Source: Escherichia coli (GTDB lineage Bacteria; Pseudomonadota; Gammaproteobacteria; Enterobacterales; Enterobacteriaceae). From it: 64,000 nucleotides of DNA. The stretch lies in the NCBI RefSeq assembly GCF_024700885.2, contig NZ_CP117016.1. The stretch is one strand, 5' to 3'. Of the stretch, positions 42,449-59,235 are shown piece by piece (position 1 is the first letter of the stretch; the number at the start of each line of letters is the position of its first letter). The notes beneath the pieces are model-generated. The model did no database searches. It was not told where the DNA came from and saw only the letters and a list, made by a program, of their open reading frames with translations. Position numbers and translations under genes: made by a program.

Positions 42449-43519
42449 TTATTTGATTTCAATTTTGTCCCACTCCCTGCCTCTGTCATCACGATACTGT
42501 GATGCCATGGTGTCCGACTTATGCCCGAGAAGATGTTGAGCAAACTTATCGCTTATCTGCTTCTCATAGAGTCTTGCAGACAAACTGCGCAACTCGTGAA
42601 AGGTTGGCGGATCCCCTTCGAAGGAAAGACCTGATGCTTTTCGTGCGCGCATAAAATACCTTGATACTGTGCCGGATGAAAGCGGTTCACGACGAGTAGA
42701 TGCAATTATGGTTTCTCCGCCAAGAATCTCTTTGCATTTACCAAGTGTTTCCTTCATTGATATCCCGAGAGCATCAACATGCAATGTTGTAGGGATGGCA
42801 ATTTTTACGCCTGTTTTGCTTTGCTCGACATAAAGATATCCATCTACGATATCAGACCACTTCATTTCGCATAAATCACCAACTCGCTGCCCGGTAACAA
42901 CAGCCAGTTCCATTGCAAGTCTGAGCCAACATGGTGATGATTCTGCTGCTTGATAAATTTTCAGGTATTCGTCAGCCGTAAGTCTTGATCTCCTTACCTC
43001 TGATTTTGCTGCGCGAGTGGCAGCGACCGGGTTTGTTGTTATATGGCCTTCAGCTATTGCCTCTCGGAATGCATCGCTCAGTGTTGATCTGATTAACTTG
43101 GCTGACGCCGCCTTGCCCTCGTCTATGTATCCATTGAGCATTGCCGCAATTTCTTTTGTGGTGATGTCTTCAAGTGAAACATCAGGCAGACCCCTCCTTA
43201 TTGCTTTAATTTTGCTCATGTAATTTATGAGTGTCTTCTGCTTGATTCCTCTGCTGGCGAGGATTTTTTCGTAGCGATCAAGCCATGAATGTAACGTAAC
43301 AGAATTATCACTGTTGATTCTCGCTGTCAGAGGCTTGTGTTTGTGTCCTGAAAATAACTCAATATTGGCCTGTATTGCTTCAGTAATTGCTATCCTCCTG
43401 TCTCTGCCTAATCCGAACTCTTTACCCGTCCTTGGGTCCCTGTAGCAGTAATATCCATTGTTTCTTATATAAAGGTTAGGGGGTAAATCCCGGCGCTCAT
43501 GACTTCGCCTTCTTCCCAT
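42449..43519 (-). CDS. int: lambda-type integrase (tyrosine recombinase)
   Basis: 356-aa protein MGRRRSHERRDLPPNLYIRNNGYYCYRDPRTGKEFGLG, recognised as lambda Int. Confidence 0.95.
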   Translation of the reverse strand: MGRRRSHERRDLPPNLYIRNNGYYCYRDPRTGKEFGLGRDRRIAITEAIQANIELFSGHKHKPLTARINSDNSVTLHSWLDRYEKILASRGIKQKTLINYMSKIKAIRRGLPDVSLEDITTKEIAAMLNGYIDEGKAASAKLIRSTLSDAFREAIAEGHITTNPVAATRAAKSEVRRSRLTADEYLKIYQAAESSPCWLRLAMELAVVTGQRVGDLCEMKWSDIVDGYLYVEQSKTGVKIAIPTTLHVDALGISMKETLGKCKEILGGETIIASTRREPLSSGTVSRYFMRARKASGLSFEGDPPTFHELRSLSARLYEKQISDKFAQHLLGHKSDTMASQYRDDRGREWDKIEIK

Positions 43520-45671: not shown

Positions 45672-46264
45672 TGGTTGCCTCCTTTTCGAAGCTGGGCGGC
45701 GATATCTTCGAGAACGCCATCAGAGAATGAGCGGTCAAAATCGCCTTCCGGCGCATTAGCCATAAACTCAGTAGAGGTAAGAATCATCCGGGCAATATCC
45801 GCGGCGTTCTTCGCAGTATCATCAATAAAACCAGCTTCCCAGGCAGCCAGCATTCTGTTCGCCACAAAATAAGCGCCTTCCTTGCGTGCTTCAGTCTTCA
45901 CTTCAGCTAGAAAAGCATCGGTAGCTGGAGTTTCGCTGTGGTGCAGGGCATCGTTGATAATCATTGCAGCAACTCCGGCCTGCCCTGCATCCGTGACCGA
46001 CACATGCTCAAGAGTTACGGCCATTGCGTGTTTCAGCCCGGCGTTCTCTGCCACCAGCGCCGCGAGATTAGTCTCAAGCTCTGCAATACGGCACATAGCA
46101 TCAATATTTGTGTCTTCCAGCCGCTTAATTTCATCCAGTAGAGCCAGTGCCACCGATGGCGTGAACGCCATACGAAACGCCACAAAATTTTGATGCATAG
46201 GTTCTGTTTCTACTGCAACTGCCGCATCTCGCAGTGCCTGATAGTCAATTGTCATTCTCGCCAT
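45668..46264 (-). CDS. coiled-coil phage protein, paralog B
   Basis: 198 aa; N-terminal [14 protein letters not shown]. Confidence 0.5.
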   Translation of the reverse strand: MARMTIDYQALRDAAVAVETEPMHQNFVAFRMAFTPSVALALLDEIKRLEDTNIDAMCRIAELETNLAALVAENAGLKHAMAVTLEHVSVTDAGQAGVAAMIINDALHHSETPATDAFLAEVKTEARKEGAYFVANRMLAAWEAGFIDDTAKNAADIARMILTSTEFMANAPEGDFDRSFSDGVLEDIAAQLRKGGNQ

Positions 46265-46917
46265 CCTTCACAGTTGTAATCACGACAGCCTTCAAAATCA
46301 TATGGGCTGTACTGCCAGGTAATTTTTCCGCAATGCGGACAATTCCAACGCACCTTCCCGCTTCGCGACTTCTTTCTTCTGTTCTGCTTTTTCAACCAGT
46401 CAGGCATGACCAAACCTGCGCCCTGAACCATTGTTCTGCGGTTAAAGTTATTGATATTGAACGTCCGGCGCTTTGCTGAATCAGCAATGGAAAATGGCAA
46501 CCAAACTATTCCTGGTTCGTTTTTGTTGGCGACGCTAAAGATGGTCGCTTTACTGAAGTCATCTGTTGGCAATCCACCGTGTTGAAGCCAGTAAACATCG
46601 TTGCCGTTCCAGCTACCTTTTTTGTAGGCCACATACGCAGTGCAATCTGACTCAATCAGGCTTTCTGTAGGGATGTACTGGCAATCAACGTGCCACACTG
46701 CCATTGCATCCACGCTATCCGCGCAAACAGGCTGATCGATATCTCGCCCACAATTCCAGGCTTTTTGGGCTTCTTCCAGCGTGTAAACATGAGCGCGATC
46801 GATATCAGAACTGTAACCATTGCCGTTATGGCAATGGAATGAAGCGTTATTGCCCACAGTTTCACGCGAGCACATCATGTAAAAACGGTTAGTCACTGGC
46901 TGCCTCCTTTGCGCCAC
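46252..46917 (-). CDS. hypothetical phage protein with C-terminal Cys-rich zinc-ribbon-like motif
   Basis: 221-aa ORF (GTG start; ATG alternatives at 46878/46875); CPHCG...C...C at C-terminus. Confidence 0.5.
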
Positions 46918-47076
46918 ATCGCATTCAGATATTTGTTTTCATTCACTGATGGAAAAGAATTTCTCTTAAGTAATTCCTCTCTCGATGGCATTGGCTTTAC
47001 GCGTTGGCGAATAATCATTTCTGCCGGAAGAATGCCGGGATTGTATGCAAGTCCTCTCATGGTAAATTACTCTTTG

Positions 47077-47391
47077 TTAATTTATTTGTATGCCTGCTCT
47101 TTCTTCATCGAGTTTTTTTAGCTTGTATCGCATAGCTCTTACTGAATAAATTGAGCGGCAGGTTGCAATTGCTATTTCTTCTGCGGAGAACTTACCGAAA
47201 AGTGATACTTCGGCTCTTGTCCATCGTCTTCCACGAAGTCGGCTAACAATGTCAGCGCCAATCCTTGTTGCTTTCGCCATTACTGCTTTTTCAGTCCTTT
47301 CCAGTTTTTCAGCGATAACTTCAACTGGCATTGTCGCCGCCACTTCGCGCAAGAAATCGACTTCCCATTTCTCCCATGGAGTCTTTTTCAT
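47077..47391 (-). CDS. hypothetical phage protein (104 aa)
   Basis: Basic protein in early-left operon. Confidence 0.45.
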   Translation of the reverse strand: MKKTPWEKWEVDFLREVAATMPVEVIAEKLERTEKAVMAKATRIGADIVSRLRGRRWTRAEVSLFGKFSAEEIAIATCRSIYSVRAMRYKLKKLDEERAGIQIN

Positions 47392-47402
47392 AGGCGATAC
47401 CG

Positions 47403-47891
47403 TTATTTGATAAGAAGTGAAGGTTTCCCAACTTTGAGTTGAGCACCGGGGATATTTATTCCTGCTTTTAGTTGGTGTTTGATTGCCAGTTTGTCGGCTT
47501 TAATTGTCGTTTCAAACTCAACGTATTCAGGAGGAAGGGTGCTTGAGTCGATGATTTCTACAGTTTCTGACGGTTTGCGGATTGTTACCTGGTGAATACC
47601 TGCTCGAATCTTTTTCTTGCCAACCATTTCAAGCGATGACGCTATATACGCCATAATGCTGTCAATCTTATTTTGAATTACTGCGGCTCGCTCATTTAGT
47701 GACTTTGCCTCGTCCTTGAGGCGTTCAGCATAACCAGATTCATTTTTAATAATGGCAAGAAGTTGCTCTATTTTATCGGTAAATTCTCCTTCCATGCCTT
47801 CTATTGTGTCAGCAATCATCTCTGGCTCTAAATCTGAATCCATCAATTTTGCGTATTCATTGGCTATTTCATATAGTTTGCTCACTGGCAA
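47403..47891 (-). CDS. Gp157-like recombination accessory protein
   Basis: 162-aa coiled-coil protein immediately downstream of and overlapping recT; assignment to the Gp157 family is from memory. Confidence 0.45.
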   Translation of the reverse strand: MPVSKLYEIANEYAKLMDSDLEPEMIADTIEGMEGEFTDKIEQLLAIIKNESGYAERLKDEAKSLNERAAVIQNKIDSIMAYIASSLEMVGKKKIRAGIHQVTIRKPSETVEIIDSSTLPPEYVEFETTIKADKLAIKHQLKAGINIPGAQLKVGKPSLLIK

Positions 47892-48771
47892 CCTCCAGTT
47901 TCGCTTTGCATTCTATGTAAATGGCTTGTACGTTCTGCTGCAATTTCATTCCAGATGTCAGGCGATATGCTTCTGCAAAATATCGCTTCAAATCATCCAT
48001 GTTTTCTGCCTGAGCCATTTCATCACAAAGAAGTTGTGCTTTTTCCATAATTTCCTGCTGGCGTTTCCGTTCATCTTCGCGGATATATTCCTCTGATTTG
48101 TGCGGCATAACTGGTTCAGTCCACACACCTTCTTCTTCGTTTAGTACGTGAATAGCACTATCAAGACGTGATGCCTTAGGCCAATACTTGCTTGCACGCT
48201 TTACGACCGTCTTTCGCGCCATCTCTTCCCAGAATGTTTTCCACGGTCCATTCTTTGCCTTGCTCGTTGCTTCCACAGCTTTAATTTCTGCCAGACTCAT
48301 TTCTTCAGTCAGGTAGTCACCATCTGCTGTTTTAACCGTGCAATAACCACCAACAATAGAGCCTCGCTCACCAAATGCGTTGTATTTGTGGGTTGGTGCT
48401 GAATCAAGACCGTTTGATTCATAGGTGTCGTTTGAGTACACCAGTTTGCATTGCCCCCACTTAATTGATCCTGTCGACTGTGCAAGGTGAAGTAATCCCA
48501 TGTAACTGATATCAAGGCACACCATGCCGTCGCGAGGAACCAGATAAGCCAGTTTGCTGGCCGGGTTTAAGGTGATGCCGATCGCCGCAACGTTGATGAT
48601 AGCGTTCTGTGCGCTGGTCGGATTTGCCAGTGCCGTTTTAGCCAGGTAATCATTTTTCTGGAAATACTGAATTGCAAACTGGCTTTCCTTAGCCCATGTC
48701 ACCGTCTGTTCAGTCAATGCTCCGCAGAATAACTGCTCCTGCTGTTTAACGAATTCAACGATATTGCTCAT
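47869..48771 (-). CDS. recT: RecT-family single-strand annealing recombinase
   Basis: 300-aa protein, recognised as RecT-like; occupies the position of lambda bet. Confidence 0.7.
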   Translation of the reverse strand: MSNIVEFVKQQEQLFCGALTEQTVTWAKESQFAIQYFQKNDYLAKTALANPTSAQNAIINVAAIGITLNPASKLAYLVPRDGMVCLDISYMGLLHLAQSTGSIKWGQCKLVYSNDTYESNGLDSAPTHKYNAFGERGSIVGGYCTVKTADGDYLTEEMSLAEIKAVEATSKAKNGPWKTFWEEMARKTVVKRASKYWPKASRLDSAIHVLNEEEGVWTEPVMPHKSEEYIREDERKRQQEIMEKAQLLCDEMAQAENMDDLKRYFAEAYRLTSGMKLQQNVQAIYIECKAKLEVASEQTI

Positions 48772-49079
48772 GCTGCTTCTCCATAAATGTGTCTGCGTTT
48801 GAATATTGCGAAGGCATATTCAGCCTTAACTCTTTCGGTTATTGCATCCCAGAACCATTCAGCGGCTTTTTCCTGATAGTTACAGTCATCATCTTCCAGC
48901 CAGTCGATAGCGTCCTTAGTGTGTTCATCTGGTTTATATGAGCGAAGCATTTCGCTTATTGGGTCGCAACGTTTGCAGAGGCGATCAACTTCACTGTTGA
49001 TTCGTTCGTAATCTTCATCAGTAAAACTTGCGATTATTTGCGATATTTCACGCTTATCATTCAGAGTCAGAATCATCAT
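48768..49079 (-). CDS. hypothetical phage protein (103 aa)
   Basis: ORF overlapping recT start. Confidence 0.45.
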   Translation of the reverse strand: MMILTLNDKREISQIIASFTDEDYERINSEVDRLCKRCDPISEMLRSYKPDEHTKDAIDWLEDDDCNYQEKAAEWFWDAITERVKAEYAFAIFKRRHIYGEAA

Positions 49080-49160: not shown

Positions 49161-49313
49161 TCATTTCCTGCGATACCACGGAAGGTTGATAGCTGATTTC
49201 ATCTCTTTATTTGCTTCAAGCCACATTTTGGAATCACCAATAAATCTGGCTATTACTGCTTTGTTTTGTGCCGCACGAAGCATCTGGTGATTGATGGCTA
49301 TTTCATTGCGCAT
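49161..49313 (-). CDS. kil: Kil-like host division inhibitor (50 aa)
   Basis: MRNEIAINHQMLRAAQNKAVIARFIGDSKMWLEANKEMKSAINLPWYRRK; resemblance to lambda Kil is from memory; adjacent to cIII as in lambda. Confidence 0.45.
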   Translation of the reverse strand: MRNEIAINHQMLRAAQNKAVIARFIGDSKMWLEANKEMKSAINLPWYRRK

Positions 49314-49432
49314 AACGCCTCCAGTTGTTTCTTTGCTGCTCTGATTAATTGTTTAACTCGGCGTGATAATTCAGATTCGTGCGGGTAGAAAGCGGACATG
49401 ACGCCGCTACCCGCGAGCTGAAAGTGCATCAT
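49298..49432 (-). CDS. cIII: CIII-like protein (FtsH inhibitor)
   Basis: MMHFQLAGSGVMSAFYPHESELSRRVKQLIRAAKKQLEAL resembles lambda CIII; AAGGAG ribosome-binding site. Confidence 0.5.
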   Translation of the reverse strand: MMHFQLAGSGVMSAFYPHESELSRRVKQLIRAAKKQLEALCAMK

Positions 49433-49615
49433 GGGTAACTCCTTATATTTGATTGCATAACGAAAACGCCTCGAGTGAAGCGTTATTGGTATGCATATAA
49501 AAAGGCCCTCACACTGGAGGGCAAAGAAGAGTTCCAATAATCAGAACAAGTCGGCTCCTGTTTAGTTACGAGCGACATTGCTCACATAGCAGACTCGTAA
49601 ATCTGCTATAGGCGC

Positions 49616-50369: not shown

Positions 50370-50696
50370 TCAAATAAGTGGTTTGCTGCCTAATTTCATT
50401 TTCTGGCGACCAACACAAGTCACGCCCATTTCACTGCGTGGCTTGCTGTACCATGTGCGCTGATTCTTGCGCTCAATACGTTGCAGGTTGCTTTCAATCT
50501 GTTCGTGGTATTCAGCCAGCGCCGTAAGGTCTATCGGATTCAGTGCGCTTTCTACTCGTGATTTCGGTTTGCGATTCAGCGAGAGAATAGGGCGGCTAAC
50601 TGGTTTTGCGCTTACCCCAACCAACAGGGGATTTGCTGCTTTCCATTGAGCCTGTTTCTCTGCGCGACGTTCGCGGCGGCGTGTTTGTGCATCCAT
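50370..50696 (-). CDS. N: antitermination protein N
   Basis: Starts MDAQTRRRERRAEKQAQWKAAN, the arginine-rich boxB-binding motif of lambda N. Confidence 0.85.
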   Translation of the reverse strand: MDAQTRRRERRAEKQAQWKAANPLLVGVSAKPVSRPILSLNRKPKSRVESALNPIDLTALAEYHEQIESNLQRIERKNQRTWYSKPRSEMGVTCVGRQKMKLGSKPLI

Positions 50697-50868
50697 CTGG
50701 ATTCTCCTGTCAGTTAGCTTTGGTGGTGTGGTAGGTGGGAGACCCATTTCGACCTGCTTCGGCCGACTTCAATTCGGCAATAGTTCCGCAGGCCTCGCCG
50801 CTTTACGTGCGACATATTCCCATCCATGAACCCTTCACCACACCCCAAAGCCTTCTGCTTTGAATGCT

Positions 50869-56001: not shown

Positions 56002-56381
56002 CAATGGATTATTCACAGTTAAGTGATTTTGAAATTAACAAGCGAGTGGCAATCGCAAATGGACTTTTGGTTCAGGGCATTGATGATAGTAAAGCCACTG
56101 GAATGACTAGCAAATATCACGAACTCCGGCCGCACACTGTTTGGGTGAGTGATGGTAAAAACCCATGGGTGCAATATGCACCAACTCTTTGCTGGGAGGA
56201 TGCTGGACCTGTCATCTTGAAGAATCGCATCAGTCTTGTTTGGGATTGCGCTGAAGATGGCAGTTCTGAATGGTGGAATTCTGTTGATCAGTTCGATTCT
56301 TGCCGAGTTCAGTACCAGTCTAATCCCCTCCGCGCCGCCATGATTGTATTTCTCATGATGCAGGACGCCAATAATGCTTAG
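55998..56381 (+). CDS. hypothetical nin-region protein (127 aa)
   Basis: ATGA overlap with upstream stop. Confidence 0.5.
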
Positions 56382-56559
56382 CCCATCCCAATCCCTTCAA
56401 TACCAGAAAGAAAGCGTCGAGCGGGCTTTAACGTGCGCTAACTGCGGTCAGAAGCTGCATGTGCTGGAAGTTCACGTGTGTGAGCGTTGTATATATGAAT
56501 GCTTAAATATGGTGGAACATAATGAGAAATATAAGCAACATAGACGAATTAAGAAATAA
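56374..56559 (+). pseudogene. ninF: ninF disrupted by insertion; chimeric 61-aa ORF keeps the CxxC...CxxC motif
   Basis: [37 protein letters not shown] then divergence at 56486; in-frame NinF-like C-terminus resumes at 57028-57089. Confidence 0.6.
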
Positions 56560-57027
56560 ATTATCATATGATGATGTTTTAGGTGTGCTTAGATGGAAAG
56601 TGTCTCCTTCTAATAATGTTAAGGTTGGCAGTGTTGCTGGTTACATTAGGAGTGATGGTTATAGGATGTTAACTATCGATGGTGTAATTACTTATGCTCA
56701 CCACGTTATATGGATGATAAATAATGGTGAGATTCCATTAGGGTATAAAATTGATCATATAAATGGAGTAAGGTCAGATAATAGGCTATCTAATCTTCGA
56801 TTGGTTACACACCAACAGAATGCACAGAACCAAAAGAGAAAAATAACCAATTCGTCAGGAGTGACTGGAGTATATTTCAATAAAGAGAGATGTAAGTGGA
56901 TTGCGAATATATGCGTAGATGGGCGCACCAAATATCTTGGAATATTTGCAAGCATCATTGACGCTATTGCAGAAAGGAAGAGGGCAGAAAAAGAACTGGG
57001 TTTTCATGAAAACCATGGCAGACCATA
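56486..57027 (+). mobile_element. 542-bp AT-rich insertion carrying an HNH homing endonuclease gene, inside ninF
   Basis: Deleting 56486-57027 restores a contiguous ninF frame (...VHVCEHCAELMSDPNSSMYEEEDDE); abrupt GC drop. Confidence 0.6.
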
Positions 57028-57028
57028 A
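56522..57028 (+). CDS. HNH homing endonuclease with AP2-like DNA-binding domain
   Basis: 168 aa; YKIDHINGVRSDNRLSNLRLVTHQQNAQN (HNH) followed by SGVTGVYFNKERCKWIANI (AP2-like). Confidence 0.75.
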   Translation: MRNISNIDELRNKLSYDDVLGVLRWKVSPSNNVKVGSVAGYIRSDGYRMLTIDGVITYAHHVIWMINNGEIPLGYKIDHINGVRSDNRLSNLRLVTHQQNAQNQKRKITNSSGVTGVYFNKERCKWIANICVDGRTKYLGIFASIIDAIAERKRAEKELGFHENHGRP

Positions 57029-57029
57029 C

Positions 57030-57089
57030 TGCGCAGAACTGATGAGCGATCCGAATAGCTCAATGTACGAGGAAGAAGACGATGAGTGA
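57030..57089 (+). pseudogene. ninF: ninF 3' remnant
   Basis: In-frame CAELMSDPNSSMYEEEDDE-stop immediately after the insertion. Confidence 0.5.
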
Positions 57090-59079: not shown

Positions 59080-59154
59080 GGGTCAGTCGTATAAAGGTCA
59101 TTACGGAAGGCTGTTAACCTTCTTATCGTGGTTCGAGTCCACGCTGTCCCGCCA
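59080..59154 (+). tRNA. phage-encoded tRNA, anticodon GUU (Asn-type), slightly non-canonical
   Basis: Manual fold: acceptor GGGTCAG/CTGTCCC (one mismatch), D-loop with GG, anticodon arm GAAGG-CTGTTAA-CCTTC, T-arm CGTGG-TTCGAGT-CCACG, discriminator G, CCA. Confidence 0.55.
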
Positions 59155-59159
59155 AATAT

Positions 59160-59235
59160 GCTGGTTTAGCTCCAATGGTAGAGCAGTCGCCTTGTAAACG
59201 AATGGGTAGCGGTTCAAGTCCGTTAACCAGCACCA
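59160..59235 (+). tRNA. phage-encoded tRNA, anticodon UGU (Thr-type), weak anticodon stem
   Basis: Manual fold: acceptor GCTGGTT/AACCAGC perfect, D-arm GCTC-CAATGGTA-GAGC, T-loop TTCAAGT, CCA; anticodon stem has two mismatches. Confidence 0.5.

Follow-up and report, generated by a model that had tools for sequence, protein, structure and literature searches.

A RecT-Gp157 gene pair in a P22-like lambdoid prophage of Escherichia coli as a probable nuclease-free recombination module

Results

The recT-gp157 locus

We analyzed a stretch of Escherichia coli DNA of 64,000 nucleotides (nt) (contig NZ_CP117016.1 of assembly GCF_024700885.2), referred to below as the window, which contains a prophage from ~42.4 kb onward. 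Our subject is a pair of genes in the early-left operon of this prophage: recT, which encodes a predicted annealase, and gp157, which follows and overlaps it. The operon lies on the minus strand, and a comparison of gene order with phage lambda puts the pair, located downstream of cIII/kil, in the lambda gam-bet-exo slot. The features of the locus itself are as follows.

47869-48771, minus strand: recT, 300 amino acids (aa), with a core of ~residues 1-212 and a C-terminal tail, Tail A, of ~residues 213-300
47872-48126, minus strand: Tail A, the C-terminal ~85 aa of RecT
47869-47900, minus strand: the recT/gp157 junction
47403-47885, minus strand: gp157, 160 aa

Judged by its profile matches, the product of 47869-48771 is a RecT-family annealase, for which single-stranded DNA annealing activity is predicted. 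It matches Pfam RecT (PF03837; E 3.8e-34, 118.4 bits against a cutoff of 24) over residues 31-208, PHROG 148 (1.8e-92), and the solved RecT structure (PDB 7UB2/7UBB; E 6.9e-5) over residues 34-200. Gp157 matches Pfam Sipho_Gp157 (PF05565; E 1.6e-36, 126 bits against a cutoff of 28.6) at positions 1-162 of the 162 in the profile, and PHROG 253 (7.6e-53). Its AlphaFold2 model (predicted local distance difference test score, 95.7) consists of a single helix at residues 21-88 followed by a small C-terminal region. A preliminary description, made from the letters of the sequence, had noted a RecT-family annealase and an overlapping downstream coiled-coil gene in the place of lambda bet and exo; the two Pfam matches, the position below cIII/kil, and the long modeled helix bear out each part of it.

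The program-made open reading frame (ORF) for gp157 spans 47403-47891, but the start is better placed at a GTG at 47885, which is the most likely start because GGAGG lies 6 nt upstream of it and the homologues are uniformly 160 aa long. With this start, recT and gp157 overlap by 17 nt, not 23, and the Shine-Dalgarno sequence for the GTG is formed by the final recT codons (K-L-E; CTGGAGG). The spacing of the 37-nt junction is constant in ~190 related loci. The overlap, the ribosome-binding sequence within the end of recT, and the fixed spacing indicate that the two genes are probably translationally coupled. In one locus (L134 2296-3633; IMGVR_UViG_2713896732_000004), recT and gp157 are fused in frame into an ORF of 446 aa. 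We did not retain it as a Rosetta-stone fusion, since its junction is 1 nt shorter than that of the ~190 loci, which probably reflects an indel or an error in sequencing.

Search for an exonuclease

No nuclease domain was detected when all ORFs of the early-left region were scanned against Pfam and PHROG, and the same Pfam scans found neither Abc2 nor lambda Gam. The nin region encodes NinB, NinX, an HNH endonuclease, YbcO, RusA, and Q, and no YqaJ/lambda Exo, RecE/DUF3799, or DnaQ-type exonuclease was found among its ORFs. Taken from 43.7 to 58.8 kb, no ORF contains a cognate 5'-3' exonuclease domain (YqaJ/lambda Exo or RecE/DUF3799). The recT-gp157 pair is 100% identical to that of E. coli MLI114 (NZ_CP117013), and the RefSeq annotation of the whole MLI114 prophage lists no exonuclease. 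The largest unassigned ORF, of 214 aa, gave a confident structure model with a fold that matches nothing known and no known nuclease fold. Sequence and profile searches of Gp157 and of the 214-aa protein against the PDB returned only coiled-coil or zinc-ribbon noise.

The preliminary description had reported no recognizable exonuclease gene nearby and had proposed domain searches of the neighboring unassigned ORFs, with a canonical exonuclease gene next to recT as the finding that would overturn it. Those searches detected no such gene. Its interpretation, that the exonuclease is either one of the unassigned ORFs or replaced by host nucleases, is supported. With a single-strand annealing protein (SAP) present and both nuclease and single-stranded DNA-binding protein (SSB) absent, the module agrees in these features with the P22 functional type (anti-RecBCD plus SAP; PMC12315714), in which Gp157 would be the putative anti-RecBCD component. 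The exonuclease gene and the Beta-type annealase tail that mark the two-component lambda Red/RecET systems are both lacking.

Known occurrences of the module

HK140, mEpX1, Gally, Kapi1, and other phages carry versions of the module with ~94% nucleotide identity, and 160-aa homologues of Gp157 are 94 to 97% identical. Among 5426 complete E. coli genomes, 300 contain the module, with the two genes annotated as "RecT family recombinase" and "siphovirus Gp157 family protein"; the RefSeq labels in HK140 are "RecT-like ssDNA annealing protein" and "Mu Gam-like end protection." HK140, mEpX1, Gally, and Kapi1 share the gene order of the window (a 103-aa ORF, recT, gp157, and a 104-aa ORF, the last encoding a protein 98 to 100% identical), likewise without nuclease or SSB, and differ only in alleles and in other flanking morons. 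The window prophage departs from the HK140-type phages in its immunity region and in having a lambda-type integrase at the lambda attachment site (attB-lambda).

The authors of the Gally study name the genes recT-gam-abc1 and call them a "recombination module"; a Gally derivative from which all three are deleted still gives lysogenizing virions, and recT is upregulated 3.6-fold together with its neighbors in macrophages (PMC9928086). In a 2025 survey of 325 lambdoid phages, HK140 is listed as SAP type 4 plus MuGam, with no nuclease or SSB; 84 of the 246 modules have no nuclease, the P22 and HK620 modules are described as lacking one, and a Rec module is found in nearly all headful-packaging lambdoid phages (PMC12315714). 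The nuclease-free RecT-Gp157 module is, in short, already known and described. About one in three enterobacterial lambdoid Rec modules is nuclease free, and the feature is in itself ordinary.

The annealase tail and the downstream partner

To assign tail classes, we split RecT into core and tail and used a Tail-A hidden Markov model (HMM). A tblastn search with Tail A alone retrieved 24 phage records, from Escherichia, Pantoea, Klebsiella, Aeromonas, and Pseudomonas, and a 160-aa Gp157 gene follows Tail A in every one of these records that was inspected. Among 240 Tail-A loci from IMG/VR, which come from three overlapping retrievals that were not de-duplicated and of which the first two consist mostly of near-identical relatives, Gp157 is present in all 240 and lies immediately downstream in 237; two of the other three are truncated and one has the recT and gp157 ORFs fused.

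Tail A is also found on a different core. The annealase of Pantoea phage PdC23 has an ERF core (81% identity to P22 Erf, residues 1-129) and ends in Tail A. This tail shares 63 to 65% identity with the RecT tail of PA-1 and gives matches at E 1.8e-13 to 5.9e-20, the common part being the last ~50 aa. Downstream of this annealase are an inserted HNH gene and then Gp157. P22 Erf itself has a different tail, and P22 has no Gp157. On visual inspection, Tail A also seemed to resemble the C termini of P22 Erf and of a 189-aa protein of Salmonella phage SEN22; the Tail-A HMM did not bear this out, and we discarded the idea.

The converse arrangement is found in phages whose RecT cores are 54 to 82% identical to that of the window and whose tails are of the Beta type, namely, Shiga toxin (Stx) phages of the P8983 type, Yersinia phage PY100, Vibrio phages 2E1 and 1.231.O, and Aeromonas phage vB_AsaM-56. 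The P8983 tail is 52.6% identical to the lambda Beta tail (E 3e-26). The PY100 tail also matches that of lambda Beta (E 3e-7) and provides the link for the tails of the Vibrio and Aeromonas phages. These RecTs are followed by a lambda-Exo homologue (38 to 88% identical), with an HNH gene in between in PY100 and directly in the others, and no Gp157 was found within 2.5 kb of them in these phages. BLAST, HMM, and hhalign comparisons detected no similarity between Tail A and the lambda Beta C-terminal tail. Over the curated set, Tail A goes with Gp157 in 7 of 7 cases and the Beta-type tail with an Exo homologue in 5 of 5.

Judging by sequence identity, the core is no guide to the tail class: Vibrio 2E1, with the Exo-type tail, has a core 82% identical to that of the window, and HK639, with Tail A, has one that is 72% identical. 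HK639, KO-TP1, and the Stx phages have an upstream gene, GamL (54 to 68% identical), in common. The order is GamL, RecT with Tail A, and Gp157 in HK639 and KO-TP1, and GamL, RecT with a Beta-type tail, and Exo in the Stx phages. The lambda Red (gam-bet-exo) and phi80/Stx (GamL-RecT-Exo) modules occupy the same operon slot as the module studied here and likewise consist of a core plus a C-terminal partner tail, with Stx RecT cores 72 to 73% identical to that of the window; they differ in pairing a Beta-type tail with a lambda Exo homologue (87.6% identical), whereas the window has Tail A with Gp157 and no exonuclease.

The GamL proteins are 93 to 94 aa long and are encoded upstream of recT (KO-TP1, L022 2044-2325; HK639, L020 2698-2982; Stx, L019 2703-2984). 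In BLAST comparisons, they resemble residues 41-108 of lambda Gam only weakly (E 4.5e-6 to 1e-3), and the Pfam Gam profile does not match them. HK639 has been described as carrying both GamL and MuGam (PMC12315714), and in HK639 and KO-TP1 two putative anti-RecBCD genes thus flank recT.

These data support, as a general rule, that the annealase tail co-varies with the immediately downstream gene. The simplest interpretation is that the tail and the partner encoded downstream may be exchanged as an interacting unit, Tail A being in contact with Gp157. The C-terminal domain of lambda Beta is known to bind lambda Exo (PDB 6M9K, cited in PMC9512822). We tentatively propose, as a reading that we consider somewhat less likely than not, that Gp157 is the dedicated partner of the annealase in the place of the exonuclease. 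The last ~50 to 85 residues of RecT would bind Gp157, and a nuclease-free, end-bound Gp157 dimer would recruit RecT to DNA ends while the host resects.

What Gp157 may be

The Gp157 family is large, with 7098 representative clusters (50% identity) at E<=1e-3 and 582 matching phage records. Its members adjoin four kinds of annealase (RecT, ERF, Rad52-like, and Sak4), mostly without a nuclease, and homologues of the window protein reach Aeromonas, Pantoea, and Pseudomonas at 50 to 63% identity. Gp157 beside annealases, usually without nuclease, has been noted for phages of Firmicutes as well (PMC8093625). In those Gp157-annealase-SSB modules (Sfi21 orf157 type), Gp157 is 27 to 35% identical to that of the window and also adjoins the annealase, but gp157 lies upstream of it, a phage SSB usually follows, and the cores are ERF, Sak, or Sak4.

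A relationship to the Gam protein of phage Mu is suggested by weak signals. Gp157 scores below threshold against Pfam Phage_Mu_Gam (PF07352; 16.3 bits with a cutoff of 28.3; E 0.01), in a collinear match to profile positions 30-147 of 149, and 21 of 119 diverse members of the Gp157 family match the same profile, the best at 5.3e-6. An hhalign comparison with a shallow Mu Gam alignment gave E 1.6e-3 at a probability of 16% over 111 aligned columns, and it pairs K132 and G147 of Gp157 with the invariant K138 and G153 of Mu Gam. Apart from this weak collinear similarity, the two resemble each other in size (160 versus 174 aa for the Mu Gam/Ku-like proteins, PF07352 and 2P2U), in having a long N-terminal helix followed by a small C-terminal region, and in the Abc1/gp9-like gene that adjoins gam in Mu. 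They differ in that Gp157 falls under the Pfam threshold and did not recover 2P2U in the fold search and in that Mu Gam is not paired with an annealase. The label "Mu Gam-like" describes a possible relationship of Gp157. The HK140 homologue has been called MuGam and classed as anti-RecBCD (PMC12315714).

Alternative explanations

The most serious alternative is that Gp157 is a generic anti-RecBCD or end-protection factor that makes no contact with RecT, in which case the tail pattern would reflect linkage, with mosaic breakpoints in the flexible linker between core and tail. Several observations speak for it and weigh against a dedicated partnership. The tail codons physically adjoin the next gene, so linkage alone could give the pattern; Gp157 accompanies four unrelated annealase families; and the HK140 protein is classed simply as anti-RecBCD (PMC12315714). 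The Staphylococcus phages, with the order gp157-erf-ssb, add to this: phage EW keeps the Erf tail of phage 92 (75% identity, residues 1-205) yet has no Gp157, and in this lineage the tail seems, from the sequences, to follow the downstream SSB rather than Gp157. Phage Lacachita is consistent with the tail rule: its Erf core is 77% identical, its tail is of another kind, and its Gp157 has no more than 35% identity. The relationship of Gp157 to Mu Gam was not confirmed by a fold search, which did not recover the Gam-family structure 2P2U.

Other observations fit a generic factor poorly. HK639 and KO-TP1 already have a GamL-type inhibitor upstream of recT and still carry Gp157 in the Exo position; in PdC23, Tail A and Gp157 remain associated although the core is of another family and an HNH gene has been inserted between them; there is no exception to the pairing in the sets analyzed (Tail A with Gp157 in 240/240 IMG/VR loci and 7/7 curated cases, Beta-type tail with Exo in 5/5); and core identity is no predictor of tail class. 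We regard a generic factor as a real possibility, though less likely than not.

It is improbable that a cognate exonuclease is present and was simply not recognized, be it the 214-aa PHROG 2457 protein, the 103-aa ORF, or Gp157 itself. Several early-left ORFs have no assigned function, and the 214-aa protein, with its fold unlike any known, has conserved residues D71, Q73, N99, and D100 and a C-terminal four-Cys motif; the searches described above returned no nuclease domain or fold for these candidates.

We give very little credence to the idea that the module arose from a RecET or Red-type system by loss of the exonuclease and is now decaying and nonfunctional, as might be suspected of an element that is a prophage and from the viability of the Gally deletion mutant, since both ORFs are intact and full length relative to their family profiles, the coupled junction is kept in ~190 loci, the module occurs in plaque-forming phages, in the 300 E. 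coli genomes, and in distant hosts (Aeromonas, Pantoea, and Pseudomonas), and recT is upregulated with its neighbors in macrophages. Equally far-fetched is a phage-resistance (exclusion) function of Gp157 unrelated to recombination, a notion that goes back to the Pfam description of PF05565, which ascribes increased phage resistance to carriers, and to the "resistance protein" label in some records, given that hundreds of phages consistently have Gp157 inside the annealase and SSB modules of their lytic-cycle early operons and that gp157 is here translationally coupled to recT.

The flanking genes and the rest of the prophage

The remaining features of the early-left region, and the start of the prophage, are listed here.

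42449-43519: lambda-type integrase gene (int), the start of the prophage in the window
46252-46896, minus strand: 214-aa ORF, PHROG 2457
46893-47060, minus strand: DUF2737
47077-47391, minus strand: 104-aa tandem helix-turn-helix ORF, 11 nt downstream of gp157
48768-49079, minus strand: 103-aa ORF, PHROG 3486, overlapping the recT start by 4 nt; the conserved left flank of the recombination slot
49161-49313, minus strand: kil (RefSeq)
49298-49537, minus strand: cIII (Pfam)
50370-50747, minus strand: N, followed by small ORFs

After the 214-aa ORF, the operon continues with two Ead/Ea22 genes, DUF551, DUF4222, xis, and int. The prophage adjoins ybhC at attB-lambda. The MLI114 element extends between ybhC and ybhB, and its RefSeq annotation includes genes of P22 type for terminase, portal, scaffold, capsid, needle, and tailspike. 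By its gene content, the prophage is P22-like lambdoid, and the P22-type virion genes lead us to infer that it would package its DNA by the headful mechanism.

The module may be compared with P22 arf-erf-abc1-abc2. Alike are the P22-like virion genes and headful packaging, the annealase without a phage exonuclease, the Abc1-family gene after the annealase region, and the place in the early-left operon; unlike are the core, which is ERF in P22 and RecT here, and the lack of Abc2 (PF11043) in the window module, which has Gp157 instead. Abc2 redirects RecBCD, and a protein of the Mu-Gam type would instead block ends. Binding of Abc2 to RecC and a block of activation at Chi are described in PMC12315714.

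The 104-aa ORF belongs to PHROG 323 (2.2e-20), the same PHROG as P22 Abc1 (1.3e-23; L003 26970-27254) and Mu gp9 (5.2e-29; L005 1483-1782), the latter located directly upstream of Mu gam. It gave no BLASTP match to P22 Abc1 and a weak one to Mu gp9 (5e-5), and the label "abc1" that it bears in Gally holds at the level of the PHROG profile only. An Abc1-like small DNA-binding protein recurs beside Gam-like or annealase genes in three unrelated phage types.

Both flanks are found in Salmonella phage SEN22 (103-aa ORF, 96% identical; 104-aa ORF, 90% identical), where they enclose (L004 2611-4001) a DUF3799 PD-(D/E)XK exonuclease and the 189-aa protein (PHROG 11517, no Pfam match). The SEN22 module type is given as SSB+, nuclease+, and no SAP (Table 1 of PMC12315714). 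Because SEN22 keeps both flanks around different genes, the recombination slot behaves as an exchangeable cassette.

Three further features were noted in the prophage. An HNH endonuclease gene (56522-57028, plus strand; Pfam HNH_3, 1.2e-19) is seemingly inserted in ninF (region 56374-57089), of which there are an intact ORF at 56374-56559 (plus strand) and a second fragment, annotated as partial in RefSeq, at ~56982-57089; it looks like a homing-endonuclease insertion. Genes for tRNA-Asn and tRNA-Thr (~59080-59235, plus strand; RefSeq annotation) lie between the Q antiterminator and the holin gene. One Chi site (GCTGGTGG), at 46051-46058 on the minus strand, is present in the 21.6-kb prophage part of the window, where ~0.6 would be expected, a length too short to judge Chi avoidance (the Bobay or Smith prediction) for this type of Rec module. 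The 42 kb of host DNA in the window has five.

Discussion

Taken together, we think it likely that recT and gp157 constitute a nuclease-free Rec module of a P22-like lambdoid prophage, in which RecT anneals, Gp157 protects ends, the host resects, and, less certainly, the RecT tail docks on Gp157. The steps follow the established biology of P22, lambda, and Mu, including what is described in PMC12315714 and PMC3784561. RecT would play the part that Erf has in P22, annealing complementary single strands and so circularizing the injected genome, which is terminally redundant, and the same activity would support the formation of concatemers by recombination during late replication. A Gp157 dimer built on the long helix may bind or protect double-strand ends against RecBCD, as Mu Gam does, which would limit the attack of RecBCD on rolling-circle tails. 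Single strands would be supplied by host helicase-nuclease activities or by replication rather than by a phage exonuclease. More speculatively, the RecT tail would dock on Gp157 by analogy with the contact between the C-terminal domain of lambda Beta and lambda Exo, making Gp157 an end-bound platform that places RecT.

The co-variation of tail and partner is a modest addition to what was already known of the module. If the proposal is correct, RecT and Gp157 would represent a second class of two-component phage recombinase, made of an end-binder and an annealase, and the shuffling of annealase cores and tails as separate units would be explained. The tail/partner rule would permit the accessory protein that an annealase needs to be predicted from sequence, which is relevant to the porting of recombineering systems, as different partners seem to be required even by RecT cores that share up to ~82% identity. 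For Gp157, a very large phage family, it provides a testable hypothesis of function.

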